DNA from: a virus
Taxonomy: Duplodnaviria; Caudoviricetes
Reading direction: 5' to 3' (one strand)
Length of the DNA: 24,938 bases
Virus record (IMG/VR): IMGVR_UViG_3300049141_000142
Location: 1 to 24,938 of that record
In this document: piece after piece, positions 2,521-24,938 of the stretch
Layout of the letters: every line of letters starts with the position of its first letter
Position numbering within the stretch: position 1 is the first letter of the stretch
The notes under the pieces: generated by a model
Told to the model about the DNA's origin: nothing
The model's database searches: none
What the model saw: the letters and a program-made list of their open reading frames with translations, nothing else
Made by a program: the position numbers and the translations under genes

Positions 2521-2723
2521 CCCTGGATCTTCTCGGCCGAGAGCGCGCCGGCATTGCTGACGGTGACGCGCCAGACGCTGCGGTCCGGCGCCTGCAGCAG
2601 GATCGCGGGCGCGGCTTCCTGCGTGGAGTGCAGGGCCAGGAAGCCGCGGCGCAGCGCGTCGAAGGCCTGGCGCAGCGCCACCGCATGCGGGCCGGCGCCG
2701 GGATCGGGCAGGTCGAGCCTCAT
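2517..2723 (-). CDS. small phage tail-associated protein, 68 aa
   Basis: ATGA-coupled on both sides; C-terminal ILLQAPDRSVWRVTVSNAGALSA beta-rich motif seen in small post-nozzle phage proteins. Confidence 0.75.
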   Translation of the reverse strand: MRLDLPDPGAGPHAVALRQAFDALRRGFLALHSTQEAAPAILLQAPDRSVWRVTVSNAGALSAEKIQG

Positions 2724-4253: not shown

Positions 4254-4282
4254 CTGTCCAGTGGACGGGGGTGTGATGCAAG
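4254..4282 (-). promoter_or_regulatory. repeated 29-bp bipartite motif, copy upstream of nozzle
   Basis: Minus strand CTTGCATC-ACACCCCCGTC-CACTGGACAG, 19 nt before the ATG at 4234. Confidence 0.75.
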
Positions 4283-4287
4283 GGTTG

Positions 4288-4411
4288 ATGCACGGGAATG
4301 ATGGACCTGGTGAAGCAGGGCTATTTCCCGGCTGGCTGCCGGATCCTCTATGCCCATCTCGGCGGCGCGCCGGCGCTGAACGGCTACGCCTACGCCTTCC
4401 GCAACGGCCGA
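4288..4411 (+). pseudogene. acdS: 3'-terminal relic of ACC deaminase
   Basis: MHG(+1 shift)[37 protein letters not shown] matches the AcdS C-terminus (MHGMI..V..G.FP.GS.VLYAHLGG.PALN.Y...FRNG*); the expected stop reads CGA at 4409-4411; no 5' part is present. Confidence 0.85.
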
Positions 4412-4425
4412 AGCCATTGATCGGC

Positions 4426-4455
4426 GCCGCGCGGCGAGGCTGATCGCCGCGCGGC
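4426..4455. terminator. GC-rich hairpin between convergent acdS relic and spanin gene
   Basis: 12-bp perfect stem GCCGCGCGGCGA / TCGCCGCGCGGC with 6-nt loop; no clear U-tract. Confidence 0.55.
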
Positions 4456-4460
4456 ATCCG

Positions 4461-4652
4461 TTACCATCCGCAGAGCCGGCGCCCGGTCTCGTTGTGCGCC
4501 AGGATGTCGGCGGCCGTGCCGCGCGTCAGCGCGTCTTGCCGGCTGACCAGGATCGGCCGCCACGGCCCGCAGGCGTCAATCCCGCGACCAGTCCCGGCGC
4601 AGCCGCTCAGCAGGGTCAGGCTCGCGAGCCACAGCACGCTCCACCGTATCAC
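4461..4652 (-). CDS. o-spanin (Rz1-like lipoprotein), 63 aa
   Basis: GGAGG then GTG at 4652; signal peptide with lipobox LSGC; further Cys residues; overlaps the i-spanin 3' end in another frame. Confidence 0.85.
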   Translation of the reverse strand: MIRWSVLWLASLTLLSGCAGTGRGIDACGPWRPILVSRQDALTRGTAADILAHNETGRRLCGW

Positions 4653-4830
4653 GGGTCCTCCGGTTTTCGATGTCGCGCCCGAGGGCGCGGTTGCCCGCCT
4701 GCAGGCGTTCCTGCTGTCGACCGCTGAGGAAGGCATAGCCGAGCGCCGCAACCGCCACGCCGACGGCGAGGAGGATGCGGCCGGCCTTGGTCCCGGCGAA
4801 CCAGCTCCAGGCCGCGAGGAGCGCACTCAT
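4576..4830 (-). CDS. i-spanin (Rz-like), 84 aa
   Basis: ATGA-coupled to the endolysin; N-terminal TM helix followed by a charged helical segment ending LRRDWSRD. Confidence 0.8.
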   Translation of the reverse strand: MSALLAAWSWFAGTKAGRILLAVGVAVAALGYAFLSGRQQERLQAGNRALGRDIENRRTRDTVERAVAREPDPAERLRRDWSRD

Positions 4831-5489
4831 GCCAAGGCTGCGCGGCGGCTCAGGATCACCGCGACCGCAACCGCGGCGGCGGCCAGCGCGATCGCCGCCA
4901 CCGCCTGCCAGGGCAGCCCGACCAGCGCCGCCAGGCCCGGGCCGGCCGCGCCGATCGCGCCGCCGATCGTCAGTGGCGTCGCGTTGGCTGCGACCGGCCC
5001 GGCCGGCGGCGCGGCCTCGACCGTGTTGCCCGCGACGTAGTCGCCGCGCACCCAGAGCCCGGCCTCGGCCGCGCGGCGGTTGACCAGGCCGGCGACGCGG
5101 CGGCCGCCGGCGCGGTTCCACTTCGCGAGCTCGGCCGGCACCGCTGCATAGTCGCCCGCGTTCAGCTTGCGCAGCAGGGTGGAGGTCGTGAAGGCGCGCT
5201 CCCCGACATTGAAGGCGAAGCTAACCAGCGCGCCGAACTGGTTGTCATTGAGCGGCACGATCACCGCCTCATCGACAGCAACTTCGAAACGCGCGAGGTC
5301 CTGGCGCAGCAGGCGCTCGGCTTCCGCCTCCGTGATGCGCTGCGCGATGCGCACGTCGCCAGTGTGGCCATAGCCGATGGTCCAGACCCCGGCGACATCC
5401 TGATAGGCGGAGAGCCGCAGGCCCTCCCACTGCTTGATCAGCGCGAGCGTCGCGCCGTTCACCCTGCGGGTGCCTGCGTCCAGCGTCAT
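4827..5489 (-). CDS. endolysin, GH24 phage lysozyme with hydrophobic C-terminal extension
   Basis: WEGLRLSAYQDVAGVWTIGYGHT (E-x8-D-x5-T triad), QFGALVSFAFNVG, STLLRKLNAG, GLVNRRAAE; C-terminal ~45 aa hydrophobic. Confidence 0.95.
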   Translation of the reverse strand: MTLDAGTRRVNGATLALIKQWEGLRLSAYQDVAGVWTIGYGHTGDVRIAQRITEAEAERLLRQDLARFEVAVDEAVIVPLNDNQFGALVSFAFNVGERAFTTSTLLRKLNAGDYAAVPAELAKWNRAGGRRVAGLVNRRAAEAGLWVRGDYVAGNTVEAAPPAGPVAANATPLTIGGAIGAAGPGLAALVGLPWQAVAAIALAAAAVAVAVILSRRAALA

Positions 5490-5707
5490 GCGTCGCTTTC
5501 TCCTTCCGGTGCCGCGAGCCAGATCGCGGCGGTCGAGAGGATCCCGACCGCGGTGATCGGCGATATGCCCTCGGTCGTCGCGACCTCGACCTGGCCGTCG
5601 TCATTGATCCAGGCGAGGCAGGCGAGGCGGGTCCCCGCCTCGCTCAGCCGCTCGGCCATCGCGACGAGCGGGTTCTGCGCCATGGGCGGCTTGCGTGGGC
5701 GGGTCAT
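5486..5707 (-). CDS. hypothetical protein, 73 aa
   Basis: GGAG then ATG at 5707; stop overlaps the endolysin start (ATGA). Confidence 0.7.
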   Translation of the reverse strand: MTRPRKPPMAQNPLVAMAERLSEAGTRLACLAWINDDGQVEVATTEGISPITAVGILSTAAIWLAAPEGESDA

Positions 5708-5720
5708 CGCGGCGTCTCCA

Positions 5721-5930
5721 TCAGCGCAGCCGCGCGAACCAGGCGAGCGCCGCGCCGATCGCGGCCGCCGTCGCGACCAGCAGCCCGACGACGCGCCAGC
5801 CGCCACGCACCTCGTTCAGCAGCCGCGTCAGCGCGGTGACCGACGCCTTGAGGTCGGCCATCTCCTCGCGGAGGTGCTGCACCTCCGCTTCCAGCGCGCC
5901 GAAGGCGCGGGCGTCGACGGGTGGGGTCAT
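5721..5930 (-). CDS. holin-like / coiled-coil + single TM phage membrane protein
   Basis: GGAG RBS; FGALEAEV coiled coil, GGWR, then a TM helix; lies upstream of the endolysin. Confidence 0.75.
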   Translation of the reverse strand: MTPPVDARAFGALEAEVQHLREEMADLKASVTALTRLLNEVRGGWRVVGLLVATAAAIGAALAWFARLR

Positions 5931-5981
5931 GCGGATGGCTCCGTTTGCGATGTGCGGGGAGGACAGCCGGGCGCGGCCAGG

Positions 5982-7115
5982 TCAGAGCGCGGCCTCCAAC
6001 GCCGCGATGCGGGCGGCCTGGGCCTGGACGATCGCGTGCAGGTCCTTGACCGCGTTGACGAGCGCCCAGGGGAGGGGACCGGCATCGAGGCGCAGCGCGT
6101 CCTCCAGGTCGATTTCGCCGAGAATTTCCCGACTGGCCGTGACGGTCTCGGGCATCGCCCGAAGCATGTCCTGCGCGATCCCGCCGATGTAGCGCCGGGT
6201 CGGATCGCGCCCGGTCGCGGCGCGGTAGCTATAGACCTTCGGGGTGATCCGCAGGATGGCGGAGAGGCCGGTGGTATAGGGCTCGATGCGTTCCTTGAAG
6301 CGCTCGTCTGAGATATCGGACCAGGGACCGCCGCCGGCCTTGTAAGCGCCACCGTCGTTGCGGAAGTCGAAGGCGGTCGCGCCGATGCCGATGCGCATCG
6401 CCGTATAGACGCCTGTGGCGTGGATCGTCTGGAGATTGATGGCGCTCCCCCAGCCGGGATCGCCTTGCACCAGGATCTGGTTCCAGACATTGCCTGGGTT
6501 GGTGATGTAGTCGCTGGTACTGAGCACCAGGCCGATGCCCTGGCTGGCGTAGAGCGCCTTACCGTGGGAGCTCCAGTTGATGCCCGCGGAGGCGCTGATG
6601 CTTCCGATCACGGAAAGGCCATTGCCGGCCGTCAGCGCGCCGCCAATGGTCACGGCGCCGTTTGCCCGATTGATCCCAAGCGCTGTGACGTCGCCGGCGC
6701 CGCTGTCGTTGAGGCGCGTGATGACGAAATCGCTGCCGGCGTTGCTGCCGGTTTCGGCCGCGGTATTGGCGCCGATATACCAGCGCCGGGACGTGCCGGT
6801 GCGGAAGCTGGCCAGGCGCCAGCGGCCGGCAGCGCCGTCGATATAGAGATTGGAATCGGCGGCGCCCGTCGTTGCAACGCGGAAGCTGGCGCCTGTCCCG
6901 CTCGCCGGTGCCAGGGTCAGCGCGCCCGTCATCGTATCGCCGGCCTTGGAGACGCGACCATTGGCATTGGCGTTCGCCGCCGCGGCATTGTCGAGCGCTG
7001 CCTTGACCTGGGTGTCCAGGATATCGGCATTGCCGTTCAGCATCGGCGCCCAGGCGTCGTCATCGCCGTTCGGGTCGGGCTTGGTCAGTCCCAGGTTCGG
7101 GGTCGTCGTGGCCAT
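5982..7115 (-). CDS. tail fibre with C-terminal intramolecular chaperone (Peptidase_S74-like), 377 aa
   Basis: GGAGG then ATG at 7115; TPNLGLTKP anchor, KAGDTMTG, ETGSNAGSDF..R..D.G; SDERFKERI...G.IAQD...PETV autocleavage chaperone and terminal coiled coil. Confidence 0.9.
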   Translation of the reverse strand: MATTTPNLGLTKPDPNGDDDAWAPMLNGNADILDTQVKAALDNAAAANANANGRVSKAGDTMTGALTLAPASGTGASFRVATTGAADSNLYIDGAAGRWRLASFRTGTSRRWYIGANTAAETGSNAGSDFVITRLNDSGAGDVTALGINRANGAVTIGGALTAGNGLSVIGSISASAGINWSSHGKALYASQGIGLVLSTSDYITNPGNVWNQILVQGDPGWGSAINLQTIHATGVYTAMRIGIGATAFDFRNDGGAYKAGGGPWSDISDERFKERIEPYTTGLSAILRITPKVYSYRAATGRDPTRRYIGGIAQDMLRAMPETVTASREILGEIDLEDALRLDAGPLPWALVNAVKDLHAIVQAQAARIAALEAAL

Positions 7116-7135
7116 TCCGGGTACCTCCACGATCC

Positions 7136-7164
7136 CTGTCCAGAGGACGAGGATAGGAGGCAAG
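7136..7164 (-). promoter_or_regulatory. repeated 29-bp bipartite motif, copy upstream of S74 fibre
   Basis: Minus strand CTTGCCTC-CTATCCTCGTC-CTCTGGACAG, 20 nt before the ATG at 7115. Confidence 0.75.
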
Positions 7165-7204
7165 CGGAAATGATTGGGTGAGGCGGGTGACGGGCCGGCG
7201 GCGG

Positions 7205-8188
7205 CTATTCGCGGCGCAGCCGGCGCAGCCGGCGCAGTCCCCACCGGATTGGGGAGGAGAGGCGCCAGAGACCGGAATCGCGCAGGCCTGGAGGCAGAAC
7301 GCCGCGCGCGTGTAGCGCCCGGTTCGCTGCCTTAAGGGAGGTAATCACGCGCGCAGCCGCGGCGCCTTCCTGCCAGTCCGTCGGCGTCCGCTCGGCCAGG
7401 GTCCCCGGCAGGGGTTCGGCCCGAGGGTGGCGGCAGACAAAGATCGCTGACACGCTATCGCCCATCATCAGGCACTCGGCCTCGACGGGCGGGAAGGTGA
7501 AATCGGTCTCGCGCATCGAGCCTTGTCGCTCAGGAAGCGCGGCCTCCCTGACTATCGCCTCCGAGCTAGCGAAGCGCCCAGCGCCGAAGTGGCCATGGCA
7601 TTGAACCTCTTCGAAAAAGCGATGGAGCTTTGCGCGCCAGGCGGTGGGCGGGATGTGATGAACATGGAATTCGTTCGCGATGTCCTGCTCCATCGCGGCG
7701 GGGTTGGAAATCGGCGGCACCGCCACCAGCACGGCGCCATCCGGGGCAACGACCCTCGCACACTCGGCAGCGAGCTGATCGACCGCCGCTACGTGCTCGA
7801 AGACGTTGGAGCTGAAGACCAGGCCGAACTCGTGATCGCCGAAGGGAAGAGGCCGGTTCAGGTCGGCCACCCGAAAATTGACGCGGTCGGCCGCATAGCG
7901 GCGGCGCGAGTGCTCCACGGCTTCAGGGCTACCTTCCAGCGCCTCCACTGCGGCAGCACCATGCCGTGCCAAATAGGCTGCCCCATACCCCGAGCCCGAG
8001 CCAACATCGAGCACCCTCTGCCCGGTCGCGAAGGCCGCGCCGAATCGATAGATCGAGAGATGCGCCCAATAAAGGAAGTTATCCCGAACTATGGCGCGCT
8101 CGCCTTGGTTGCTGAGGTCATCGTGGTCGGGAACGGGCGAAGTCATCGTCGATGAGGAGCCTTGGCGCATTTGCGCCCATACTGCCAC
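7205..8188 (-). CDS. class I SAM-dependent methyltransferase (accessory/moron gene); start uncertain (8188, 8170 or 8146)
   Basis: VLDVGSGSGYG motif I, LPF.D.EFGLVFSSNVFEHV, RVVAPDG; C-terminal SGLWRLSSPIR amphipathic motif; more A/T-ending codons than the core structural genes. Confidence 0.9.
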   Translation of the reverse strand: MAVWAQMRQGSSSTMTSPVPDHDDLSNQGERAIVRDNFLYWAHLSIYRFGAAFATGQRVLDVGSGSGYGAAYLARHGAAAVEALEGSPEAVEHSRRRYAADRVNFRVADLNRPLPFGDHEFGLVFSSNVFEHVAAVDQLAAECARVVAPDGAVLVAVPPISNPAAMEQDIANEFHVHHIPPTAWRAKLHRFFEEVQCHGHFGAGRFASSEAIVREAALPERQGSMRETDFTFPPVEAECLMMGDSVSAIFVCRHPRAEPLPGTLAERTPTDWQEGAAAARVITSLKAANRALHARGVLPPGLRDSGLWRLSSPIRWGLRRLRRLRRE

Positions 8189-8221
8189 CTGGCGATGGGC
8201 TTCACCAGCCGCCCAGAAGCG

Positions 8222-8938
8222 CTAGGTCGGCGGTAGCTTCATGATGAACGCAAGCGCGTAGTAGGGCGGCACTGTCGGGACGGTGACCGTGTGGGCATGA
8301 TTGCCGTCGGCAACGATGCCGTGGGCGTGCCCCTGATTGCCGCCAGCTCCTGCGATCGAGATGCCGGTGCCGGCGGCGTCAGTGCCCTTTGGTCCGATGT
8401 CGTTGCCGACAGTGACATTGACAAACCTATTTCCGGCGCCGTTTGGGCCGGCAATCCCCGACTGATCGAACATCGGATGCGCATGCCCAGGATCGAACAC
8501 CCCGTGCGCGTGGAAGGGCATCTGCCCTTCGGTGATGGCGTGGGGCGCCGTAACGCCCGTGTGCGCGTGCGCGCCGGCCGCCGATGTGCCAACGAATTGG
8601 CTGAACGCGCCGCCCGCATCACCGGGAAGTCGTCCGGGGTGGGCGCCTAGAACGAACCTCTCCTGAAGATTCGGCGTGCCGTTCGCGCCGTTGCACAGCG
8701 CCCATCCGGCGGGGATGGCATTGAGAGCGCCGCTCCACATGATGATGCCGCCAACCGGGTAGGCCAGCTTCTCCAGCGCCGTCGCCCGCGCCTCCAGCGT
8801 ATCGAGGCGCCCATCGGTCTCCGTCGCGAACTGGTCGATCAGATCCATGTCGCCGTTGAGCTTGTTGCCCCAGGTGTTGATGCTCTGGTTGATCTCCGGC
8901 TTGGTCAGGTTGAGGGTCGGCGTGAAGCTGTCGGCCAT
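8222..8938 (-). CDS. short tail fibre with tail-collar domain
   Basis: TPTLNLTKP anchor; PVGGIIMWSG...IPAGWALCNGANGTPNLQERF collar; HxH metal-binding repeats; PPYYALAFIMK end. Confidence 0.9.
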   Translation of the reverse strand: MADSFTPTLNLTKPEINQSINTWGNKLNGDMDLIDQFATETDGRLDTLEARATALEKLAYPVGGIIMWSGALNAIPAGWALCNGANGTPNLQERFVLGAHPGRLPGDAGGAFSQFVGTSAAGAHAHTGVTAPHAITEGQMPFHAHGVFDPGHAHPMFDQSGIAGPNGAGNRFVNVTVGNDIGPKGTDAAGTGISIAGAGGNQGHAHGIVADGNHAHTVTVPTVPPYYALAFIMKLPPT

Positions 8939-8940
8939 CG

Positions 8941-9447
8941 CTATCGCTCCGCGGGTTGCTGCGGCACCCAGGCGGGCGCGCCAGGTATCGGTGAGGGGAG
9001 CCAGGGGCCGCTGCCGCCAAGCTCGCCCGGGTCCCAGGCCGGCGCGGATGGCGTGTCATCCGGCCGGTCCCAGAGCTCGCGCAGCCGGCCGCGCAGGGCA
9101 CTCTGCGCCGCCGCCAGGCCGAAGCCGCCGAGCGCCCGTGCCAGGTCGCCCCGCATCTCGCTGACCGCGGCCGCATGGGCGCCAAGCACACCATCGCGCC
9201 GGATGCCGCCCAACGCCGCACTCACCGCCGTCAGCGCGCCGCCGGAGGCCTTCGGGTTCAGCGCCCCGCCCAGCGCGGCCGAGACCGCCGCGGCGCGGAC
9301 CATGCCCATCCGCGACCGCAGCACGCCGCCGCTGGCGGCAACGCCCGCCAGCGCACGCGCGGCGGCCCGGTCCAGCCGCCATGAACCGAAGGCGGCGAAG
9401 CCATAGGGCCCCGCGCCGAAGGGGCGGGTGCGGCCGCTGACCGGCAT
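8941..9447 (-). CDS. phage structural protein (hypothetical)
   Basis: Coupled start; FGAGPYG..AFG N-terminus, Ala/Gly core, Trp-Pro repeats at the C-terminus; lies in the tail operon. Confidence 0.7.
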   Translation of the reverse strand: MPVSGRTRPFGAGPYGFAAFGSWRLDRAAARALAGVAASGGVLRSRMGMVRAAAVSAALGGALNPKASGGALTAVSAALGGIRRDGVLGAHAAAVSEMRGDLARALGGFGLAAAQSALRGRLRELWDRPDDTPSAPAWDPGELGGSGPWLPSPIPGAPAWVPQQPAER

Positions 9448-9878
9448 CAGTCGAGCGCCACCTGCAGCGCCGCTGGCTCGAAGCGGATCGCGTCGCCGTA
9501 ATCGACCGTCTTCGGCAGCGGCGTCACGAAGCCGCTCGCGGGGTCAGTGAGCGGCGCATAGGCCAGCATGTTGCCGCCGCTCGCCGCATCGAACAGCGCG
9601 AACCAGCTCACCGTGCCCCAGCCACCGGCGCCCGCAACCGGGAACAGCACCGTCGCGTCATTGCTCGCCGTCCAACGGCCGCTGGTGCCATCCAGCGCAA
9701 AGGCGAAGCTCGCCGGCTGCCGCGCATAGGCGGCGCCGTTCACCTCGGTCCCGCCGCCGGCCTCGCCGGGTGCCACGGTGAAAAGCGCGACATGGATCCC
9801 TGCCGGCTGCGGAAAGGCCGCGCCGCGGAACACATGACGGATCACCTTCTCTTCGAGATAGTTCGTGAAGCCCGGCAT
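9447..9878 (-). CDS. phage tail-associated structural protein
   Basis: FTNYLEEKVIRHVF...VALFT..PGEAGGGTEVNG..YARQ...WGTVSWFALFDAASGGNML, a widespread phage virion family; coupled to both neighbours. Confidence 0.85.
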   Translation of the reverse strand: MPGFTNYLEEKVIRHVFRGAAFPQPAGIHVALFTVAPGEAGGGTEVNGAAYARQPASFAFALDGTSGRWTASNDATVLFPVAGAGGWGTVSWFALFDAASGGNMLAYAPLTDPASGFVTPLPKTVDYGDAIRFEPAALQVALD

Positions 9879-10528
9879 CAGCGGAATCCCCTGCGCACGC
9901 GCCGGATCGGCCCGCCGCTGAAGCGGGCCGCCTCCGTCGCTCGGTTGCGGCTGTCGATGCGGTCCTTGTAGAGGCCGGCCCAGGTCGGGAGCCGCGCATC
10001 GTTCTTCAGATAGGGCTCAGCCTGCACCAGGCTGCCATAGAGATAGGCGGCGCTGTCCTCGGCCAGCAGCCAGTTGCTGGGCGTATCGGGGCCAAGCCGC
10101 GGCAGCTTCTGGAAATAGACCATTTCGATGGCCGCCGGCTGCGCCGGCAGCGGGAAGAATTCCAGCACGGTGCCGGCGACCGCATAGTATTCCGGCGCGC
10201 CGGTCACCGCGGGATATCCGGGCGGCACGGCGCCGAAGGGCAGGCGGCGGCCGCGCAGGGCCTGGATGTGATCCAGCGTCGTCAGCACCAGCGGTCGGTG
10301 CCGCCCTTTCGGCGTCAGCCGCACTGCCTCCAGCCAATCCTCCGGCAGCGCCACCGGCTGATCCGCGATCAGCGCATCGACATAGCGGTGCATCCGCCGG
10401 TCGCGCAGCTTCGCGTTGATGTCGTCCTCGGCGAGGCGGATAAAATCCGGAATGCGGTCCGTCAGGTCGCGGCGGTTCAGCCAGGATGCGATGCTCGCCT
10501 GCAGCTCGGCATAGGTCGAGAGCGCCAT
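9878..10528 (-). CDS. head-tail adaptor protein
   Basis: MALSTYAELQASIASWLNRRDLT..IPDFI.LAE and NWLL.....YLYGSL..A.PYLKND.R...W motifs of podovirus adaptor proteins. Confidence 0.85.
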   Translation of the reverse strand: MALSTYAELQASIASWLNRRDLTDRIPDFIRLAEDDINAKLRDRRMHRYVDALIADQPVALPEDWLEAVRLTPKGRHRPLVLTTLDHIQALRGRRLPFGAVPPGYPAVTGAPEYYAVAGTVLEFFPLPAQPAAIEMVYFQKLPRLGPDTPSNWLLAEDSAAYLYGSLVQAEPYLKNDARLPTWAGLYKDRIDSRNRATEAARFSGGPIRRVRRGFR

Positions 10529-10848
10529 CAGATGCGCCCTCCGGCCACGCGGAAGGCCCGGTTGTCGGCGTCGTTCAGCCAGCGGCGCCAGGCGGCGCGG
10601 TCATTCATCCATCCCTCCCGGACCGCGCGATCGACGACCGCCAACGGCACCCGCGCCGCGAGCCGGAAGGGCCGCCCGCGCTGGTCGAGCTCCGCGTCGC
10701 GCCGGTTGGCGGCGAGGATGGCGTCGCAATCCTGGCTGGTGACGAAATGCATGGCGCCGCCCTGGCGGCTTTCCGTCTCCGCCGGGTTCCACACCAGGGT
10801 GCGTATGATGCCGCCATGCTGGTCATAGATGTGCCGCTCCGTCGCCAT
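10528..10848 (-). CDS. conserved phage protein downstream of capsid gene, 106 aa
   Basis: QDCDAIL..N, ARVP.......W, RWLND.DNRAFRV..GRI motif; TGATG coupling to the adaptor. Confidence 0.8.
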   Translation of the reverse strand: MATERHIYDQHGGIIRTLVWNPAETESRQGGAMHFVTSQDCDAILAANRRDAELDQRGRPFRLAARVPLAVVDRAVREGWMNDRAAWRRWLNDADNRAFRVAGGRI

Positions 10849-10874
10849 GCTGCATCCCCGAATACGGAAAGGGT

Positions 10875-10899
10875 GGCGGAGGGCGTAGCGCCCTCCGCC
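10875..10899 (-). terminator. hairpin after major capsid gene (putative attenuating terminator)
   Basis: 11-bp perfect stem GGCGGAGGGCG / CGCCCTCCGCC, 3-nt loop, 8 nt after the capsid stop, followed by ACCCTTT on the minus strand. Confidence 0.7.
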
Positions 10900-10907
10900 C
10901 TGTCGCC

Positions 10908-11870
10908 TCACGGCTCGTCGGCCGCCGACGGCGCGATGTCGGCAATCTTGAAATGCGCCGCCTCGTTCGAGACCTCGAGCCCGTACTCCGCGACCAGCAT
11001 CCGGGTCTCGGCATCGCCGACCTTCGCGATCTCCTCGGTCTTCAGCCGCCGGTAATAGGCGACCTTTGCGTATTCCGGATCGATGCCGAGCACGGTGCGC
11101 GGGCGCTGCCAGCGCGACGGTACCGCCTTCAGCTCGCCGAAATCGGAGAGGTAGAAATCCGCCGCGGCGACGATCTCGTCCGCGTCGATCTTCACGCGGC
11201 TGTTGGCGCGCCCCGCGAAGCCGGAGAACTTCCGCTTCGCGTAAGGGCCCATCATCAGCAGCGTCGGTTCGCCGCCATTCTCATAGGTCTCCTGGATGGC
11301 GTCCGCCAGCAGCGCCTCGGTGAAGGCGCGCAGCGTGCCATCGGTGACCGCGGCGGTCTCGCTCACTGGGTTCGCGCCGCCCGCGCCATAGGACGCGTTG
11401 GTCGTGATCCAGTGCTCGAAGGCTCGGGTCGCGCGTGCGGTAGGCGTGGTGTCGTCGCCATTCGCCCGCGCCTGCTCGCCGACCAGGATGCTCTCCATGT
11501 CGCGCAGCAGCGCCTTCCCGTTCAGCGCGATCTGATGCGCCATCTCGCCCCGCTTGCCGGCGGCGTCCGCACTCTCCTGCGAGCCGGAGACCGTCGCGTC
11601 GCGGGTCGAGATCTGACAGACATTGGACCGCCGTACCGTCGGCTGCGCGACGGAACGCGACAGCTCGAACCCTTCCTCCTTGCGGTTCGCCTTGTTCACG
11701 GCCGGCAGGTTCTCGGTCTGCCAGTCGAACTGGACGTTGGTGGCATTGCGGGTGCCGATCGCCGTCATGAAGGGACGGTCGCTCGGGTCGATGTTGTAGA
11801 TTGCGTTCGCCAGGTCCTCGCGGTTGCCCTTGGCGCCATAGGTGGTGAATGCGTTCGTGACCTTGGCCAT
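10908..11870 (-). CDS. major capsid protein (DUF5309 / SU10-MCP-like)
   Basis: GNREDL..AIYNIDP.D.PF, FDWQTE.L, N.CQI......VSGSQ, Y.SDFG, AKVGDAE..MLVAEYGLEV.NEAAH; strong AAGGAG RBS. Confidence 0.92.
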   Translation of the reverse strand: MAKVTNAFTTYGAKGNREDLANAIYNIDPSDRPFMTAIGTRNATNVQFDWQTENLPAVNKANRKEEGFELSRSVAQPTVRRSNVCQISTRDATVSGSQESADAAGKRGEMAHQIALNGKALLRDMESILVGEQARANGDDTTPTARATRAFEHWITTNASYGAGGANPVSETAAVTDGTLRAFTEALLADAIQETYENGGEPTLLMMGPYAKRKFSGFAGRANSRVKIDADEIVAAADFYLSDFGELKAVPSRWQRPRTVLGIDPEYAKVAYYRRLKTEEIAKVGDAETRMLVAEYGLEVSNEAAHFKIADIAPSAADEP

Positions 11871-11886
11871 GGCCGGGTTCTCTCCT

Positions 11887-12921
11887 TCAGAGGAGTTTTT
11901 CGATCACCGCCTGCGCGTCGCGCAGGCTGTTGGACTTCGCCAGACGCTGCTTGGCGCGCACGAGGTCGGCGCCCTGCCGCGGTCCGGGATGCTGCGCACC
12001 CGGCCGCGGGGAGGGCGATGCCGGCCTCGGCGGCTGCGGAGACAGACGCTTCTGCATGGCCTCGTCGTATTTCATCGCCTTGTAGAGGACGACGACCGCG
12101 CGATGATCGATGACGGAGGAGAGCTCCTCCTCCGACCAGCCGAGCCCGAGGCCATACTCCCGCACCTTGATCCGGTCGGTGTTGCGGCGCTCCCTGTCGC
12201 GCCAGGCGGGCATCGCCTGCACGAGCAGATCGCTTTCATGATGGAGCTTCGCGCGCATCTCGTCTTCGGTCGCGATCGCTTCCGCCGCGCGGACGCGCTC
12301 ATACTCCTGCCGCGCGGCGTCCATGCGGGACTGGCTCTCGCGCCATTCCTCGCGCTTCAGCATGTAGCCGACCGGGTCTTCCTCCTTCAGGCGCGCCCAA
12401 TCCGGCTCCGGACCCTGCATCTGCTGGATCTGGAAGGCGAGAGCCGGGAGGAGCTGCGCGTATTGAAGGCGCTCCTGCCGCACCGCGGACGCTTCGCCGT
12501 CGAGACCCCTGCGGTCTTCGGCGAGCGCCTGCGTCTTGCGCGTGTAGTCGGCCTGGCGGAGATAGCCGCGGGTCACCTCCGCCAGCGGAAGCCGCTGCGA
12601 CTTGCCGTCGATCTCGACGGTGACGAGCGTCTTCGCGGGGTCGGGCTCCGCGGCGTCTTCATCCGCCTCGGCCGGGGGATCCTCGGGCTCGATCTCGACC
12701 TCGGGCTCCAGCTCGGAGCCTTCGGCATCGACCGGCGTCTCGCCGTCGGATCCGGGATGCTGCGCCTCGGCTGCGTCAGCCTTGGCCTGCGGCATGCGGG
12801 CCGCCGCGGCACCTGGTTCCCCGCTGTCGCGGGCCAGGAGTTCGGCGATGCTGGATGCCGCGGTTTCCACGTCGGTGCCCTGGGGCGTGTCGGACGTGGC
12901 GATGGTGATCTCGGACGCCAT
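11887..12921 (-). CDS. capsid scaffolding protein, 344 aa
   Basis: AGGAG then ATG at 12921; acidic N-terminus, VTVEIDGK....L.E...GYLRQADYTRKTQALAE, coiled coil, DHRAVVVLYKAMKYD; immediately upstream of the capsid gene. Confidence 0.88.
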   Translation of the reverse strand: MASEITIATSDTPQGTDVETAASSIAELLARDSGEPGAAAARMPQAKADAAEAQHPGSDGETPVDAEGSELEPEVEIEPEDPPAEADEDAAEPDPAKTLVTVEIDGKSQRLPLAEVTRGYLRQADYTRKTQALAEDRRGLDGEASAVRQERLQYAQLLPALAFQIQQMQGPEPDWARLKEEDPVGYMLKREEWRESQSRMDAARQEYERVRAAEAIATEDEMRAKLHHESDLLVQAMPAWRDRERRNTDRIKVREYGLGLGWSEEELSSVIDHRAVVVLYKAMKYDEAMQKRLSPQPPRPASPSPRPGAQHPGPRQGADLVRAKQRLAKSNSLRDAQAVIEKLL

Positions 12922-12922
12922 G

Positions 12923-13213
12923 TCAGCTCCTGCTCTTGCGTTGCAGTTCGAAGCGGAGGTTGCGCTTCGTGATGGCCGCACCCGCGGCGGCCGCCGCGAG
13001 ATCCGCGCGCAGCGCATCGAGGGCGCGCAGCATCAGGAAGGCGGCCTCCCGCTCTTCGCGCCCATGCGCGGGATCGGAGTGGCGGATCTGTGCCAGGCAA
13101 TGCGCTTCGACATTGGCGAAGGCGCGCTGCAGGCCGGGATGCTCGATCGCCGCGCGTGCCTGGCGCGCGGCGGCATCGGCTTCGGTGATGATGGTGTCGG
13201 GGCTGCGTGCCAT
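12923..13213 (-). CDS. small conserved head-module protein, 96 aa
   Basis: GGAG then ATG at 13213; helical, EEREAAFLMLRALDALRADL; typical position between portal and scaffold. Confidence 0.8.
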   Translation of the reverse strand: MARSPDTIITEADAAARQARAAIEHPGLQRAFANVEAHCLAQIRHSDPAHGREEREAAFLMLRALDALRADLAAAAAGAAITKRNLRFELQRKSRS

Positions 13214-13233
13214 CGCTGTCTCCACCTCAGCGC

Positions 13234-13262
13234 CTATCCAGAGCAGGGGGGAGGGATGCAAG
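13234..13262 (-). promoter_or_regulatory. repeated 29-bp bipartite motif, copy upstream of scaffold/capsid operon
   Basis: Minus strand CTTGCATC-CCTCCCCCCTG-CTCTGGATAG, 20 nt before the ATG at 13213. Confidence 0.8.
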
Positions 13263-13933
13263 CGGGAAGTGCGGAGAAGGAGATCGACGGCGCTGATCGC
13301 CGCGGATTGCGCAGGATCGGGAGGGTTGTTCGCCGCGGCCGCCGACAGGCCGGCGGCACGATGGCAACAGCCGTCATGCCTTACCGGTTACCCTCCGGCC
13401 GTCGACTGTTGGTTACGCCTGGTACTGCGCTTCTCGGAACGCACGCCTCGCCACGTTGAGCGTCGGATCGCTTCCCGCGGCAGCGCGGTGAAAGTCGGGC
13501 GGAAGCCGGGGGATCGCTCCAGACCATGCCCATGATGCGAGGGCCGCGGTACATGTGTGAAATATGGCCGCGCTTGATCCAACGGCGGCTACGGTAGAAC
13601 TGCGGCAAGCGCCGCCGCCGAGGCCTGCTCGCGGATTGCCGCTGGTCTCAGCAGTATCGTGCCGGCCTGCGCCAAGGATACCTGGTCTCGTACCGAAGCT
13701 GCTTCCGACGCCAGATCCCCGTGGGCCGCCGGACTACCGGCGGTCCTTACCGCGGAACAGCGCGATGTCGCCCCGGTTGACCCGGCGCGGTTGGCGGAGA
13801 AGCTGCGCCATGTTTTGCCAGCGCATCCGCTCCCACATAGCCGGGTGCGGTTCCATGCGCGTGGGGCGATAGGGAATCACGGTCCGAGTATGCCAGACGC
13901 ACACCCTTCCCCAGAGCGGGAAGGGCCTCCAGG

Positions 13934-14134
13934 TCAAGGCGCTTCGTCGGATGGAAGGCTGCCATCGAGCCGGCCGGGGACCGCGCCGTAGCGCGGCATC
14001 AGGAACGCCCGCCGTCGTCCGGCGGCGGATCGGAGAGACACGCGAATATTCTCGATCGGATCGGGATGCGCGAGCAGCCCGCGCGGCACCGGCGGCACGC
14101 GGTCGGTGGGGTATTCCGGATCGCGCGAGCGCAT
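13934..14134 (-). CDS. short hypothetical protein or gene remnant, 66 aa
   Basis: TGATG-coupled to the upstream gene; contains PRGLL and MPRYGAV, the latter duplicated from the upstream gene. Confidence 0.4.
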   Translation of the reverse strand: MRSRDPEYPTDRVPPVPRGLLAHPDPIENIRVSLRSAAGRRRAFLMPRYGAVPGRLDGSLPSDEAP

Positions 14135-14207
14135 CAACGCATTCTGCCCAGCAGGGCGTTGAAGTCAGGACTTCCGGCGAGCCCCACCGCGCCGTAGCGC
14201 GGCATCA
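13980..14207. repeat. 22-bp exact direct repeat ACCGCGCCGTAGCGCGGCATCA
   Basis: Copies at 13980-14001 and 14186-14207; a 12-bp core GCCGTAGCGCGG occurs again at 14248-14259. Confidence 0.85.
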
Positions 14208-14970
14208 CGCCGACCTGCTGCAGCCGCGCCAGCGTCGCGGGCTGCATGCCGTAGCGCGGTGGTGCGTAGCTCGGCAGGCCGAGATTGGGTACTGGTGGCA
14301 GGCCACCGCCGTTCGCGGGCGGGTTGCCCGGCGCCGGCGCCGCCGGCAGCGGTTGCAGCGCACCGATGGCCGGCGGCGCAGCCGGGAAGGCACCGTAGTT
14401 GTAGGCCGCGACCGGCGCCTGCGGCGCGCCTGGCATGGCGCCGCCGGCGACAAAGTTGCGCGGCGCCTGGTCGATCGGCGCGGTCAGCGCGCTGCGCCAC
14501 GCATCGCGCTGCGCGGCGCGCGGGTCCGGCCCCTGGGGCAGCAGCGAGCCGAGATAGTTGGCGAGGCCGTAGCCACCATGATCGCCATTGCCACCATTGC
14601 CGTCGCTGGTGCCATCCGGGCCGCTGCTGTTGCTGTGCCCGTCGGCGGCACTGCTGTTGCCATGGCCATCGGCCGCACCGCTGTCGCCGTGACCATCGGC
14701 GGCGCCGGCACCGGAGCCATCGGCGCCGTCCGCGCCTGCTCCATCGCCCGCCCCATCGCCGCCGTCACCGCTGTTGTCGAAGGCCGGCAGGCCGGCCGGG
14801 CCGCGCAATGGCCGGCCGTCGCGCGTCAGCCCGCCGCCGCGCGCGCGCAGCAGCGCCGCCTCCTGCGCGGTGATGTAGGCCAGGTGATGCGGCGTGCCGC
14901 GCACGGAGGTGCGCCGCGGCGCGGTCACCTGGCCGGAGGGCTCGGCATCGAGAAGGCCACGGCGCTTCAT
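14134..14970 (-). CDS. putative internal virion protein, 278 aa
   Basis: GGAG RBS, ATGA coupling; HHLAYITAQEAALLRARGGG...GPAGLPAF motif that I recognise from phage low-complexity internal proteins; Gly/Asp/Ser repeats then a Pro/Ala-rich tail. Confidence 0.75.
   Translation of the reverse strand: MKRRGLLDAEPSGQVTAPRRTSVRGTPHHLAYITAQEAALLRARGGGLTRDGRPLRGPAGLPAFDNSGDGGDGAGDGAGADGADGSGAGAADGHGDSGAADGHGNSSAADGHSNSSGPDGTSDGNGGNGDHGGYGLANYLGSLLPQGPDPRAAQRDAWRSALTAPIDQAPRNFVAGGAMPGAPQAPVAAYNYGAFPAAPPAIGALQPLPAAPAPGNPPANGGGLPPVPNLGLPSYAPPRYGMQPATLARLQQVGVMPRYGAVGLAGSPDFNALLGRMR
14593..14700 (-). repeat. 27-bp (9-aa) coding tandem repeat
   Basis: ADGHGDSGA / ADGHGNSSA / ADGHSNSSG / PDGTSDGNG. Confidence 0.7.
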
Positions 14971-16055
14971 TGCGCTTCTCCCTCCCCTGCACCCAGCAGT
15001 CCCCCACCAGCGCCCATCATCAGACCGGCCGCTCCCTGCAATTGGAAATAGCGGGACAGGAATTCGTCCGTGTTGATGAGGGAGCGGAAGTACGCCGCGG
15101 CTCTCGGGGCCCGCGTCCATATCAGCTCCGGATTGCGCAGATAGGTTCCAAGCCCCTCAGCAAACAGCTCATTGCGTTCAGCTTGAGAGCCAACTCGTTC
15201 GCCGCCAGCGGAGAGGACCCGCCCCAGTTCGGTCACCACGTGTCGCGGCATTTGGGCGTCGCCCGTCAGCCCGGAATGCACGCCATGGCCGACTTCGTGC
15301 ATTTCTGTCTGGCCGCCGCGTGGATTGCCTTCGCGAATGCGCGCCGAGGCCATACGCGCCGTCGCTTCGCCGCGCCCCTGCGCCCAGGCGCCGCGCAGCG
15401 AGTAAACGCTCTCTATCCTGCCGTTACGGATGCGTGGAAATTCGGGGCCGGGGACATCGCGCGCAACGCCCCGCTGCGCCAGGTAGTCTAGAAGATACTC
15501 ACGAGCCTCTGATGGAAGCGGTGAAAAACTCCCCTCTGAAGTACGCCCCGCCCGCCACGGCGCCGTGAGATGTCGCCCTTCGGGGTCCACCGCGGGGAAC
15601 GCAGATGCATTGGAACCATTCGGCGGGCCAGGCGGTCGAGGAGGGGCGGGCGGGGAATCGCCCCGATCGGGAGGTATCGAGCCATTGGTCATATTATACC
15701 GGACTGCCCCCGCATTTGCACGCGCGATCGGCCGAATGCGGCCGGCAAAACCCAGCGCGAACATGGCCTCATCAAGCCGCCGCTGAGCCACGCCCGGGTG
15801 GACATATTCGGGCTCACCAGGGAACCCGGCCAGCGGGTTCCGCACCGGCTCGCCAGGCCGCATGTCCGGCGACGGCAGCGTCAGCGACGGCCCCTGACGC
15901 TGCGGCCGCAGCAGCCCGGCTCTCTCTGAACTGGCCTGATAGGCGGCCAGCATATCATCCAAGTCGGACGGCAGCAGCGAAGGGCGCCGTGCCACGATGT
16001 AGGCACGTGCCTCGTCGCCGGGATCAGGCTCGCCGCCACCCAGAAGTCCGGTCAT
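14967..16055 (-). CDS. putative virion-borne zinc metallopeptidase (HExxH, MPTase/anthrax-LF-like)
   Basis: EMHEVGHGVH plus downstream NELFAEGLGTYLRNPE.....AP.AA.YF; Pro-rich N-terminal half; ATGA-coupled to the portal; more A/T-ending codons. Confidence 0.75.
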   Translation of the reverse strand: MTGLLGGGEPDPGDEARAYIVARRPSLLPSDLDDMLAAYQASSERAGLLRPQRQGPSLTLPSPDMRPGEPVRNPLAGFPGEPEYVHPGVAQRRLDEAMFALGFAGRIRPIARANAGAVRYNMTNGSIPPDRGDSPPAPPRPPGPPNGSNASAFPAVDPEGRHLTAPWRAGRTSEGSFSPLPSEAREYLLDYLAQRGVARDVPGPEFPRIRNGRIESVYSLRGAWAQGRGEATARMASARIREGNPRGGQTEMHEVGHGVHSGLTGDAQMPRHVVTELGRVLSAGGERVGSQAERNELFAEGLGTYLRNPELIWTRAPRAAAYFRSLINTDEFLSRYFQLQGAAGLMMGAGGGLLGAGEGEAQ

Positions 16056-18397
16056 TGCATGGTCTCCTCGGCCGGCGCGGCGACTGCTGGCTGCGCCTGC
16101 ATGGCATTCCGGTCGCGATCGACCAGCGCCCGGATCGCCGCAACATCCACCTGGGCGCCGTATTTGAGCTGCATCTCGTAGGCCCGAAGCGTGATGTCGG
16201 CATCCAGACGGTCGCGTTCGCGATCGTCGGCCTGCTGCGCCTTCCAGGCTTCGAGACGTTGGGATTCCAGCTTCACCTGGGCATCGAGGCGGTTGGTGGC
16301 GATCTTCGCCTCGGCCTCCATGCGGCCGTTCTGGATCTGCGCCTGCGCCAGCGCCGCGCCGGGGTCGGGCGCCGCGCCCTGGCCGCGCGCCTGCTGCGCC
16401 TTCGCGCGGAAGGCCATGTCGTCGGCCGCACCCGGATCGAGGAAGAAGCGGTTCGCATCCTTGTAGCCGCCGAGGCGCACGATCTCCGCCAAGGTTGCGC
16501 GGAACTGGCGGATGGTGACCAGCGGGTTGTCCGGCCCGATCGTCGTCAGGATCTGCTGCTGCTGTTGCAGCACCATCATCAGGAAGGCCATGCGCTGGCT
16601 ATCCGGGCCGCGGCCGAGCGCGACATTGACCGAGACATCCATCTCCGCATCCCAGACGCGCGGATCGACCTCCGACCATTGGCCGCGCAGGCGCACCATG
16701 CGCGGCCGGTCCTGATGCCGCACCAGCATCCGCAGCACGCCGCGGAACACCTGCTTGACCAGCGTCTCCGCCAATGTGCGCGCGATCATCTCGACGCGCT
16801 CCTGCGACGCCTCGATGGTGTTCTGCACCGCGACCTTGGTTGCCGATTGCAGCGCCTCGGGGTCGAGGCCGCGGCTCGCCCGCGTGATACCGGTGCGCTG
16901 CGCCTTCACCTCGTCGACATAGGCCAGCACGCCCATCGCTTCGGCGCCCACGAAGGGTTGCGCCAGCGCCTGCACCATGCCCGGCGCCTTCATGCGGATG
17001 ATCGCGCCGCGCTCGTTGTTCGCGACGTCGTCGAGGTTCACCGCGCCCTCGACCACGCCGAGCTTCGGGTCCAGCGCCTCCGCCAGGCTGTCCATGACCG
17101 AGCGCAGGATGCCGGTCTTCAGGTCCTGCAGATCGAGCGTCTGGTCGGCGATCGAGCTGCCGATGACGCGGTGCGGCTGGCGCACGGGGGAGCCGAGCGC
17201 CATCGGCACCTCCGGCACCACCTCATCGCTCAGCACCAGGTCGCAATCAGCGCCCACGGTGCAGACGCGGTGCAGCTCCGCGACGCCGTCGCCATCCGCG
17301 TCGTAGCGGATGAAATGCTCGACATGCAGCACCCGCCAGGCGCTGCGGTCGATCGAGGGCAGATCGAAGGGCAGCGCCCGCGCCGGGTCGCGCTGCGTCG
17401 CCTCATCGTTCAGAGCGAAATCCGCCTCGGCGGTGGCATGCCGGGCGAGCGTCTCGACATCGCCGGCGCCGCGCGCGACGAGGTCGGAGATCCGTTCCAG
17501 GCTGCGATGCGCGCAATAGCTCGCGCCGTCGATGTCGCGGGCGTCGCGGGCGATGACGAATTCCTCGGGCGGCACCGCCATCAGCCGCAGCACGCCGCGC
17601 CGCGTGGTGCGCCGGACATGCAGGTCGATGCTGATCGCCGGCGAGGGCACCAGGCCCGGCATCAGCGGCGCCGGCGCCTCCGGCAGGATCAGCGTCTCGC
17701 GCCGCTCCAGCACCTCGATGGCGGGATCGGCGAGCAGCCGCGCCTCGGTCAGCGGGTCGAGGCCGGTATAGTCCAGCGCCTCGACCCGCACCGCCTCGTC
17801 CCACCACCATTTCACGATGCCGGTCTTCTTCAGCAGCGCGTCATGCACCGCGTCATGCAGCGTCGCGAACCAGGAATTGCCGTCAGCATTGATGCAGTAG
17901 CCGACATAGTCGGTCATCTGCTCCGCCATGGCCTCATCCTCCGGGCCATGCGGGATGAATTCGACGACGCGCTCGCCGGAGGTGAAGATGCGGATCAGCC
18001 CCGGCAGCATCTGGTGCACGATATCAGCGACCTCGCGCGCCACCACCGCGCTGCGGCCCGCGAGGTCCTCGAGCTGCTCCGGCCGGTCCTGCCGGTCATA
18101 GATCAGCCCGTCGTAATAGTCCTGCGCGCGCTGCCGCTCCGGCGCCTGGTGGCTGTCGATCGCATCCGCCGCATCCGCGTAGCTCATGCGCACCAGCGCG
18201 CGGATATCCTCGACCGAGAGCGGCTCGGCCGCCGCCGCCGCCGGCGGCGCCTCGGCCGGCGCCATCGGCGGCTCGCCATCCCCGGCCGCGAGGATCGCCG
18301 CCGCCGCCGCGTCGAGCGCGGCGCGCATGCCGCCGAGGGGCTTCGGCGGCAGCGCCGCCGCGATGTCGCCGATCCTGCTGCGCTGCTGTGCTGCCAC
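16052..18397 (-). CDS. portal protein (podovirus, P22/SU10-like)
   Basis: R..A.DYY.G, GRSAVV..EV.D.V....P.LIRIFTSGERVVEF.P.GPEDE..AEQ.TDYV, DALLKKTGIVK.WW, VPPEEF; Gln-rich C-terminal barrel; GTG start after GGGAG. Confidence 0.92.
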   Translation of the reverse strand: MAAQQRSRIGDIAAALPPKPLGGMRAALDAAAAAILAAGDGEPPMAPAEAPPAAAAAEPLSVEDIRALVRMSYADAADAIDSHQAPERQRAQDYYDGLIYDRQDRPEQLEDLAGRSAVVAREVADIVHQMLPGLIRIFTSGERVVEFIPHGPEDEAMAEQMTDYVGYCINADGNSWFATLHDAVHDALLKKTGIVKWWWDEAVRVEALDYTGLDPLTEARLLADPAIEVLERRETLILPEAPAPLMPGLVPSPAISIDLHVRRTTRRGVLRLMAVPPEEFVIARDARDIDGASYCAHRSLERISDLVARGAGDVETLARHATAEADFALNDEATQRDPARALPFDLPSIDRSAWRVLHVEHFIRYDADGDGVAELHRVCTVGADCDLVLSDEVVPEVPMALGSPVRQPHRVIGSSIADQTLDLQDLKTGILRSVMDSLAEALDPKLGVVEGAVNLDDVANNERGAIIRMKAPGMVQALAQPFVGAEAMGVLAYVDEVKAQRTGITRASRGLDPEALQSATKVAVQNTIEASQERVEMIARTLAETLVKQVFRGVLRMLVRHQDRPRMVRLRGQWSEVDPRVWDAEMDVSVNVALGRGPDSQRMAFLMMVLQQQQQILTTIGPDNPLVTIRQFRATLAEIVRLGGYKDANRFFLDPGAADDMAFRAKAQQARGQGAAPDPGAALAQAQIQNGRMEAEAKIATNRLDAQVKLESQRLEAWKAQQADDRERDRLDADITLRAYEMQLKYGAQVDVAAIRALVDRDRNAMQAQPAVAAPAEETMQ

Positions 18398-18436
18398 GCG
18401 ATGATGTCTCCCGCACCGATCCGGCTCTGATGGCGG

Positions 18437-18465
18437 CTATCCAGAGCGGGGCAGGTCGATGCAAG
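18437..18465 (-). promoter_or_regulatory. repeated 29-bp bipartite motif, copy upstream of portal
   Basis: Minus strand CTTGCATC-GACCTGCCCCG-CTCTGGATAG, 39 nt before the GTG at 18397. Confidence 0.8.

Positions 18466-21518: not shown

Positions 21519-24938
<3,420 letters not shown>

Follow-up and report, generated by a model that had tools for sequence, protein, structure and literature searches.

We analyzed a 24,938-base stretch of viral DNA (a single IMG/VR contig, hereafter the window), which by its gene content is the head-tail cluster of a GP4/SU10-type podovirus without a terminase. Four copies of a 29-bp motif precede the operons of this cluster, and the same motif precedes scattered phage-type genes in the nearest whole genome, that of Plastoroseomonas hellenica LMG 31523. 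Judging from these sites, it is highly likely that the motif marks a dedicated promoter regulon, which we regard as new, lineage-restricted, and like that of a gene transfer agent (GTA). As to how the regulon is read, we give about an even chance to the model in which the motif is a sigma70-type promoter with a private extension, co-activating a probably domesticated GP4/SU10-like podovirus through the host RNA polymerase and a GcrA-like cofactor of phage origin.

The motif in the window and in Plastoroseomonas hellenica

An earlier note on this DNA had described four motif copies with identical spacing and differing spacers. All four were located on the minus (coding) strand, compared with a mean of 0.00 matches to the pattern over 100 shuffles of the window. 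Copy 1 (18437 to 18465) lies 39 nt before the GTG start of the portal gene and recurs at the same site in P. hellenica, in a Roseomonas metagenome-assembled genome (MAG), and in a root-metagenome contig. The three internal copies stand 20, 20, and 19 nt from their start codons, as had been claimed: copy 2 (13234 to 13262) before the 96-aa gene at the head of the scaffold-capsid operon, copy 3 (7136 to 7164) before the S74-chaperone fiber and lysis genes, and copy 4 (4254 to 4282) before the nozzle-position gene and ejection genes. Copy 2 is kept in L011, L033, and L010 (an IMG/VR locus with the same cluster as the MAG), and relatives have sites orthologous to copies 3 and 4. Allowing up to 4 mismatches over the 18 box positions revealed no fifth site in the window. 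Once further copies were added, the consensus became cT(T/G)G(C/A)-N14-C(T/A)CTGGA(C/T)AG.

Copies 2 to 4 had been described as following interruptions at which transcription would need to restart. The interruptions are there (an 870-bp gap, a methyltransferase gene, and an acdS relic); because the methyltransferase lies on the cluster's own strand and no minus-strand terminator was found, the need to restart remains presumptive. Among the 27 scanned open reading frames (ORFs) of the window, none belonged to a regulator family, in agreement with the note, and there were no terminase or replication genes. Because the window is a single contig, the evidence for a regulon comes from relatives.

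Additional copies had been anticipated before orphan phage genes, and the P. hellenica genome bears this out, with a terminase pair, a tailspike-like gene, and cargo-like genes as targets; elsewhere in that genome, matches stayed at chance level. There are 11 exact TKGM-N14-CWCTGGAYAG sites in P. hellenica (control, 0) and 4 in the Roseomonas MAG (control, 2). The other 399 of 401 family genomes contain at most two each, apart from one (G013) with four, all in or against host coding regions and none at phage genes. A twelfth P. hellenica site, a CTCGAC-type variant, precedes an AAA_25 helicase gene. Phage-type genes follow 9 of the 12 sites, fragments follow two, and one has no recognizable target; four of the sites serve structural operons. 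The orphan terS-terL pair of P. hellenica is intact, lies amid host genes, and is 59 to 65% identical to the terminases of related phages. The pair in the MAG occupies a different host context and encodes a TerL 88% identical to that of P. hellenica, and each pair stands behind its own cTGGAC-N14-CWCTGGACAG. The remaining orphan targets in P. hellenica comprise a pectate-lyase-fold, tailspike-like gene (PF12708; weak phage match); an 87-aa gene that looks like a helix-turn-helix (HTH) protein (no Pfam match), followed by a toprim primase and a D5 helicase; a gene for a 750-aa DUF7178-like protein, followed by paralogous unknown genes; an ORF with a GLL start, followed by two DUF1835/DUF3658 paralogs; and a fragment with RGLLDAEP. 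In L010 and in true phages, homologs of the DUF7178-like protein are encoded between the portal and scaffold genes. The toprim/D5 pair (contig C15) was considered as a core component of the element; it was not found in the MAG and is read as a satellite-like add-on.

Across the 12 sites, mean pairwise identity was 0.97 for CWCTGG, 0.88 for AYAG (the putative −10), 0.73 for the left box, and 0.36 for the spacer. The right box alone occurs at 23 sites in P. hellenica (control, 49), of which 11 without a left-box match lie in or beside host genes. A wider motif scan yielded 9 viral-contig loci and 116 metagenome loci (3 of 64 parts scanned); a core element gene stood beside the site in 1 of the 125 (L003, from the same record as L010), and one further locus had a lysozyme gene alone. 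Single motif matches are mostly chance. The position weight matrix (PWM) was trained on the same 26 sites that it scored, and those scores are not independent.

Several observations concern the neighborhoods of these sites. Used as a search key, the motif led to the terminase and, via a paralog of the helicase, to the candidate switch described below. Paralogs of ROS/MucR (L059:9071-9508 and L085:6867-7307) lie near two orphan sites whose upstream DNA is 79% alike over 244 bp. DUF433/PIN toxin-antitoxin-like pairs are found near the orphan terminase in both P. hellenica and the MAG (L081:10001-11103 and L083:11117-12882), with other neighbors differing, and a fragment from the same family of terminases, broken and in part inverted, is present at L291:6142-6497 (P. 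hellenica contig C8, 88.1 to 88.5 kb). The motif-led HTH-like/toprim/D5 operon (L086:6028-12001; contig C15, 9.0 to 15 kb) is followed by an ABC-3C defense system (CTD6, MC2).

The probable promoter and its candidate reader

The earlier note had proposed a promoter read in trans by a dedicated sigma factor or activator. The private regulon is supported by the scattered targets; the core, however, resembles a sigma70 promoter of the host that bears a private extension, and not the site of a new sigma factor. TTGCA/TTGAC and GAYAG, 17 bp apart, have a sigma70-like geometry (with inferred numbering), and the leaders would be 12 to 13 nt including the ribosome-binding site. The sites fail a scan for the TATAAT consensus, although the −35/−10 geometry fits. 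One-mismatch versions precede tRNA-Cys in P. hellenica (24 nt upstream) and metG in the MAG; the core is therefore probably of a host promoter type. The private part would occupy positions −17 to −12, at the upstream fork junction. CWCTGG was found in 0 of 26 non-element CTTGM-N20-ATAG sites (three genomes; most sites not placed), an absence that is only suggestive of a private extension. Two other site types were considered and rejected. The sites bear some likeness to an RpoHII consensus, but the consensus given in PMC8266604 is TTG / CCATGT, and none of the 12 P. hellenica sites precedes a chaperone gene. Against an SOS/LexA box, no repair gene lies behind any of the 12 sites.

A search with the AAA_25 helicase identified a module present, among six genus genomes, in P. 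hellenica and the MAG only. It consists of a CI-like repressor gene divergent from a GcrA-like gene, a primase zinc-binding domain (ZBD)-like gene, and the helicase gene, with identities between the two genomes of 91%, 58%, 54%, and 76%, respectively. The repressor has an XRE HTH and, by appearance, a peptidase-like C terminus. Strong matches to the primase-ZBD-like gene occur in 2 of 401 genomes, the same two, with three weak matches elsewhere. The GcrA-like protein matches PF07750 (E = 8e-12) over profile positions 108 to 150 of 155 only. Its HTH is deleted, leaving a conserved basic segment, in all 10 close sequences, and an HTH is present in 4 distant ones. In the alignment it keeps the CCCH finger and the W/F/F/Y/Y interface residues; the aromatic residues of GcrA are reported to be needed for sigma binding (PMC5887438). 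According to the same source, GcrA without its DNA-binding domain still melts promoters slightly, and the linker is proposed to make contacts at the fork junction. A modeled complex of the GcrA-like protein with a host RpoD fragment scored 0.73, compared with 0.00 for the best control (the mark was attained by 116 of the 157 solved pairs and 2 of the 215 mismatched ones; at least 50% of contacts agreed between runs, with a partner pLDDT [predicted local distance difference test] of at least 61). Because a complex of the same kind is solved, this model shows likeness and not binding. TerS and the GcrA-like protein each have nine close clusters in a large protein set. One cluster of each (P0009 for TerS, P0015 for the GcrA-like protein) has a longest contig of 1,277,505 bp, and the two may lie on one chromosome.

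From the sites, their spacing, the scattered targets, purifying selection, and co-occurrence with the module, we infer the following steps. TTGCA/TTGAC would serve as the −35 element and GAYAG as a weak −10 element 17 bp away, with leaders of ∼12 to 13 nt. A signal, probably DNA damage, would inactivate the CI-like repressor; the HTH-less GcrA-like protein would then bind domain 2 of sigma70 and, through contacts of its conserved basic linker with CWCTGG (−17 to −12), help to open the promoters. Heads, tails, terminase, fibers, cargo, and lysis genes would thereby be co-produced from separate loci. That the GcrA-like cofactor is the reader of the motif seems to us an evenly balanced proposition. 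The earlier note had likened the regulator to GafA or GafYZ; activation in trans is retained as a likeness of role, but the best candidate is a GcrA-like sigma70 cofactor (no search for GafA or GafY homologs was made).

Several points weigh against this assignment. The broad CTTGM-N20-ATAG pattern is rarer in P. hellenica than its reversed control (13 versus 42), so that the host-promoter reading draws on few placed sites, and among the 12 motif sites of this genome are the one without a recognizable phage gene and the two with fragments only. The motif was not found in the module itself by PWM scan. The P. hellenica protein has D at the position of G129, where the MAG protein has G, and in Caulobacter a G129D change is reported to have weakened binding (PMC5887438). 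GcrA-like genes are common in early operons of alphaproteobacterial phages (41 viral loci, 8 inspected), and the GcrA-like protein of phiCbK has been proposed to alter host replication instead (PMC3556154). The co-occurrence of module and motif comes from two sister genomes, and shared descent alone could account for it. In the MAG and in L371, though not in P. hellenica, a Mu-like cluster for a contractile tail lies directly beside the module, which may have arrived with that tail or function for it. Finally, P. hellenica holds a second RpoD (L284:6580-8223; contig C15, 84.6 to 86.2 kb) of 547 aa, lacking region 1.1, 49% identical to the primary RpoD, and encoded amid host genes.

Two observations stand beside these. 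The Mu-like cluster (L299/L300, MAG contig C404:1-10000; L371:4171-12564) encodes sheath, tube, tape measure, and baseplate, converges on the module, and is possibly a tailocin. In one of the eight inspected phage loci, of an SU10-type phage, a 75-aa GcrA consisting of the sigma-interacting domain only is encoded directly upstream of terS (L351:9950-10177), the position of a late activator.

The regulon could be the same and be read by the second RpoD or by a yet-unfound activator, with the GcrA-like protein only competing with host GcrA or serving the Mu-like tail; we consider this distinctly less likely than the GcrA-like reader. P. hellenica has two RpoD-length sigma factors, compared with one each in G038, G168, and G307, the paralog differs in region 2.4 (ITR to ISR), and the Mu-like tail lies beside the module in two of its three known contexts. 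However, the neighbors of the paralog are host genes (hydrolase, phosphoribosyltransferase-esterase), and nothing around it is phage-like. No match to it was found in the MAG, whose assembly also yielded no primary RpoD, and P. hellenica retains the module without the tail.

It is less likely again that the sites are plain host sigma70 promoters without an activator, in which CWCTGG(AYAG) is a repressor operator over the −10 element or an extended −10, spread by cassette duplication. The versions at tRNA-Cys and metG would fit, as would the 244 bp of upstream DNA that is 79% alike at the C6 and C52 sites, and CTGGACAG is near-palindromic in its C variant. That symmetry is nevertheless broken by T in 14 of 26 sites, and the repeats between the CI-like gene and gcrA (TGTGCA, TGCATTNATGCA) are unlike the box. 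Constitutive expression of capsid and lysis genes would be costly, and the extension is near-invariant while spacers drift.

Relatives, selection, and the history of the locus

The closest motif-bearing capsid copies are those of P. hellenica (98% identity), the MAG/L010 (93%), and L011 (93%). In all of these the motif precedes the 96-aa gene, the S74 fiber gene, and the nozzle-position gene, with differing spacers and upstream insertions, and P. hellenica and the MAG also retain the portal motif. The MAG contains a second, compact copy of the cluster, with a capsid of 85 to 86% identity and no motif; in it, the start codons of the 96-aa gene and of the fiber gene overlap the stop codon of whichever gene precedes them. 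At its nozzle gene is a site of equal length with a different right box. This compact copy (L012/L064/L233; MAG contigs C216 and C101) has both large ejection genes, and its capsid gene is frameshifted in the IMG/VR assembly and whole in the MAG. A second terminase was not found in the MAG. Within the same structural family, five complete 42- to 43-kb phages and one prophage lacked the motif (best PWM score, 13.6). The motif-bearing capsids form one group (support 88/96; tree drawn open).

The locus appears to be fixed. The patatin-like flank is shared by the window and P. hellenica and a homologous autotransporter flank by the window and the MAG; on a contig from another study, portal, motif, and patatin-like gene occur together, making the flank common to three lineages. 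Comparison of four copies, rough at 70% GC, gave ratios of nonsynonymous to synonymous substitution (dN/dS) for the motif-bearing copies of 0.06 to 0.15 for the capsid, 0.11 to 0.49 for other genes, and 0.06 to 0.39 for core genes, with a TyrS control of 0.43. The orphan TerL gave 0.22, and dS between P. hellenica and the MAG was ∼0.4, compared with 0.28 for TyrS. The range is narrow: the element was found in 2 of 6 genus genomes (the remaining four are small assemblies, with TyrS 73 to 78% identical, compared with 82% for the MAG), and an SU10 capsid of any kind in 6 of 301 family genomes. These comparisons point to a fixed locus, vertical descent, and purifying selection, as expected of a GTA.

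The alternative of a slowly decaying prophage, with the motifs as leftover late promoters and the scattered sites as debris, would draw on that narrow range, the missing or broken large ejection genes, the degenerate gaps and relics, and the compact phage-like relative in the MAG. It is improbable, given a flank shared by three lineages, the dN/dS values of the core genes and the orphan TerL at a dS of ∼0.4, the absence of the motif from the related phages and prophage, and an intact terminase at different places with its own motif each. Least credible is a recombination or insertion site bounding mobile cassettes. In its favor, homology between strains does end at the upstream edge of copy 2, as observed in two further studies, and the genes inserted directly upstream differ from site to site. 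Against it, the spacers are only 36% alike, all placed sites face a downstream ribosome-binding site or gene, none had a visible integrase next to it, and the DNA shared by C6 and C52 continues past the motif.

The particle and its relation to known systems

The genes of the window are on the minus strand unless noted otherwise. The SU10-type portal gene (16052 to 18397; PF23899, E = 1.9e-177; phrog_1216) is followed by a variable cargo-like ORF of 362 aa (14967 to 16055) with GLL at both ends, an HEVGH motif, and no family match; it is patchy among relatives, with homologs in L010, L011, and L063. A 278-aa gene (14134 to 14970; start MKRRGLLDAEP) is retained by all close copies, the compact copy included. 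The 870-bp degenerate gap (13263 to 14133) holds no convincing gene, and relatives carry a patatin-like copy or a DUF7178-like gene here. The 96-aa gene (12923 to 13213), conserved with homologs in every related phage tested, precedes the genes for the head scaffolding protein (11887 to 12921; phrog_3927, E = 8.8e-58) and SU10-type major capsid protein (10908 to 11870; PF17236, E = 7.3e-89; 98% identical to that of P. hellenica). A 106-aa gene, an SU10 adaptor, a GP4 gp80 fiber protein, a 168-aa gene, and a collar fiber follow (8222 to 10848; PF24175, PF23140, PF07484; phrog matches).

An inserted class I methyltransferase (7205 to 8146; Methyltransf_11, PF08241, E = 1.1e-20) precedes the tail fiber with S74 chaperone (5982 to 7115; PF13884; phrog_1980) and the lysis block (4461 to 5930; PF00959, E = 2.2e-52; phrog_1275), which comprises a 69-aa gene that is holin-like by appearance, a 73-aa gene, lysozyme, an 84-aa gene, and an Rz-like spanin. 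Relatives have other methyltransferases in the same slot, L010 among them; two related FkbM-type methyltransferases were seen next to the podovirus fiber genes of P. hellenica (L061:1078-2121) and next to the end of the Mu-like tail and the module in the MAG (L299:4917-5975). The 3′ relic of acdS (4295 to 4420, plus strand), recognized by translation, has 87.5% DNA identity to the intact gene at the same place in P. hellenica, where a full acdS-acdR pair (L061:5192-6828; 1-aminocyclopropane-1-carboxylate [ACC] deaminase-like protein and Lrp regulator by Pfam) is inserted between spanin and nozzle. Downstream are a 504-aa virion protein, a nozzle by position, with 68-aa and 119-aa genes (2161 to 4234; phrog_3287, E = 1.6e-78), a 329-aa DNA ejection protein with a 162-aa gene (673 to 2159; phrog_4287), and a PBECR1-like nuclease relic (259 to 579; PF18809, 27.0 bits, just below the 27.6 cutoff). 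The host flank (18573 to 24938, plus strand) consists of a patatin-like gene and then an autotransporter; the same flank types stand beside the portal motif in P. hellenica and the MAG.

Genes at the cargo position (window 14134 to 16055; L058:9473-10201; L059:10225-10440; L010 from 5651) have a GLL segment at the start, and often also at the end. The starts include MKRRGLLDAEP, MTGLLGG, MKGLLSED, and MSGLLSD and are also seen in phage relatives; the segment is possibly a capsid-loading signal. The variable GLL-ended genes with HExxH, PBECR1-like, and DUF7178-like domains resemble phage polyvalent proteins (PMC5512222).

The P. hellenica pieces (structural cluster, terminase, tailspike-like gene, and module) are spread over different contigs and surrounded by host genes. 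An element split in this way cannot move itself, as expected of a GTA, and dispersal, fixed locus, and selection together appear to fit a GTA-like element. It is not an intact temperate prophage: host genes flank the cluster in P. hellenica, the terminase is elsewhere, and the second large ejection gene was not found with the query used. Nor is this the siphovirus-type head-tail cluster of the Rhodobacter-type RcGTA or of CcGTA, since portal, capsid, and adaptor are SU10-type and the fiber GP4 gp80-type. Two features are at odds with a classic GTA. The N-terminal domain of TerS is retained (Terminase_2 at residues 20 to 59), and the protein is 50% identical to the TerS of Microcystis phage MJing1 from the first residues, while the known GTA TerS described in PMC11841831 lacks that domain. 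The locus also lacks both large ejection genes that the compact copy has; the window and L011 keep only a PBECR1-like relic, borne in L011 by a broken ejection-like gene. In P. hellenica, the 777-aa ejection query matched only a separate, motif-less satellite-like region, and the second query matched nothing. DNA delivery is therefore in doubt with the large ejection genes missing.

That satellite-like region (L285:2866-15193; contig C52, 14.9 to 27.2 kb) encodes HTH_17, a toprim primase, a DUF927 helicase, a DUF5681 terS-like protein, and three virion ejection- or fiber-like proteins, and may use the tamed capsids or supply their ejection proteins. There are no replication genes in the cluster; an AAA_25 helicase and the primase-ZBD-like gene lie in the module and toprim/D5 behind one P. 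hellenica motif. We tentatively rate DNA-packaging GTA-like particles somewhat above protein-delivery particles.

By analogy, the regulon appears to work like that of CcGTA, yet it lies outside the RcGTA/CcGTA family. Both CcGTA (GafY/GafZ; as described in PMC11150451) and RcGTA (GafA) have a main head-tail cluster with accessory genes elsewhere; an activator that is itself kept repressed switches these on together in trans, acting through sigma70 at weak promoters, as predicted here. Unlike CcGTA, the element has SU10/GP4-type podovirus genes, a fixed-spacing shared sequence in the core promoter, and an orphan terminase with the TerS N-terminal domain kept; its candidate cofactor is predicted to act at sigma domain 2, where GafY is reported to bind domains 3 and 4. 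Bartonella BaGTA (run-off replication; PMC11841831) likewise has an independent phage origin and a separate defective-prophage module with replication-type genes, a likeness by description; it differs in host family, and the module here adds a CI switch and a GcrA-like gene.

Caulobacter GcrA and phiCbK gp222 (as described in PMC5887438, PMC7403470, and PMC3556154) share the CCCH sigma-interacting domain, the interface aromatics, and the predicted docking on sigma70 region 1.2 and the nonconserved region. Unlike in Caulobacter GcrA, the methyl-DNA-reading HTH is replaced by a short conserved basic segment, and the gene sits behind a phage repressor. Temperate GP4/SU10-like podophages (MJing1 and the 43-kb IMG/VR phages) share the portal-to-ejection gene order, with capsids 64 to 71% and TerL 62 to 65% identical and DUF7178-like cargo between portal and scaffold; in contrast to the cluster here, the genes of these phages are contiguous and include a terminase and replication genes, and the motif is absent. 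Searches of open-license full text in PMC and bioRxiv listed no paper on the element, motif, or cofactor role, and none in which a GcrA-like protein activates particle genes.

The fullest reading is that one Plastoroseomonas clade carries an independently tamed podovirus in which repressor cleavage would free an HTH-less GcrA, letting sigma70 read an extended −10 CWCTGG across a genome-wide regulon, and in which capsids without large ejection proteins would carry swappable GLL-tagged cargo from orphan cassettes with tandem immunity-like genes downstream. As a whole, this remains a tentative and rather unlikely combination. If the preferred model of a sigma70-type promoter read with a GcrA-like cofactor is true, this would be a recent independent podovirus domestication with both the split (into cluster, terminase, fiber, cargo, and switch) and the rewiring legible from sequence, the rewiring being one promoter before each piece that is absent from the compact relative in the same genome. 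The origin of GTA-like regulons would become testable in a cultured type strain, and many HTH-less phage GcrA-like proteins would gain a role as sigma70 cofactors that shift core-promoter choice.

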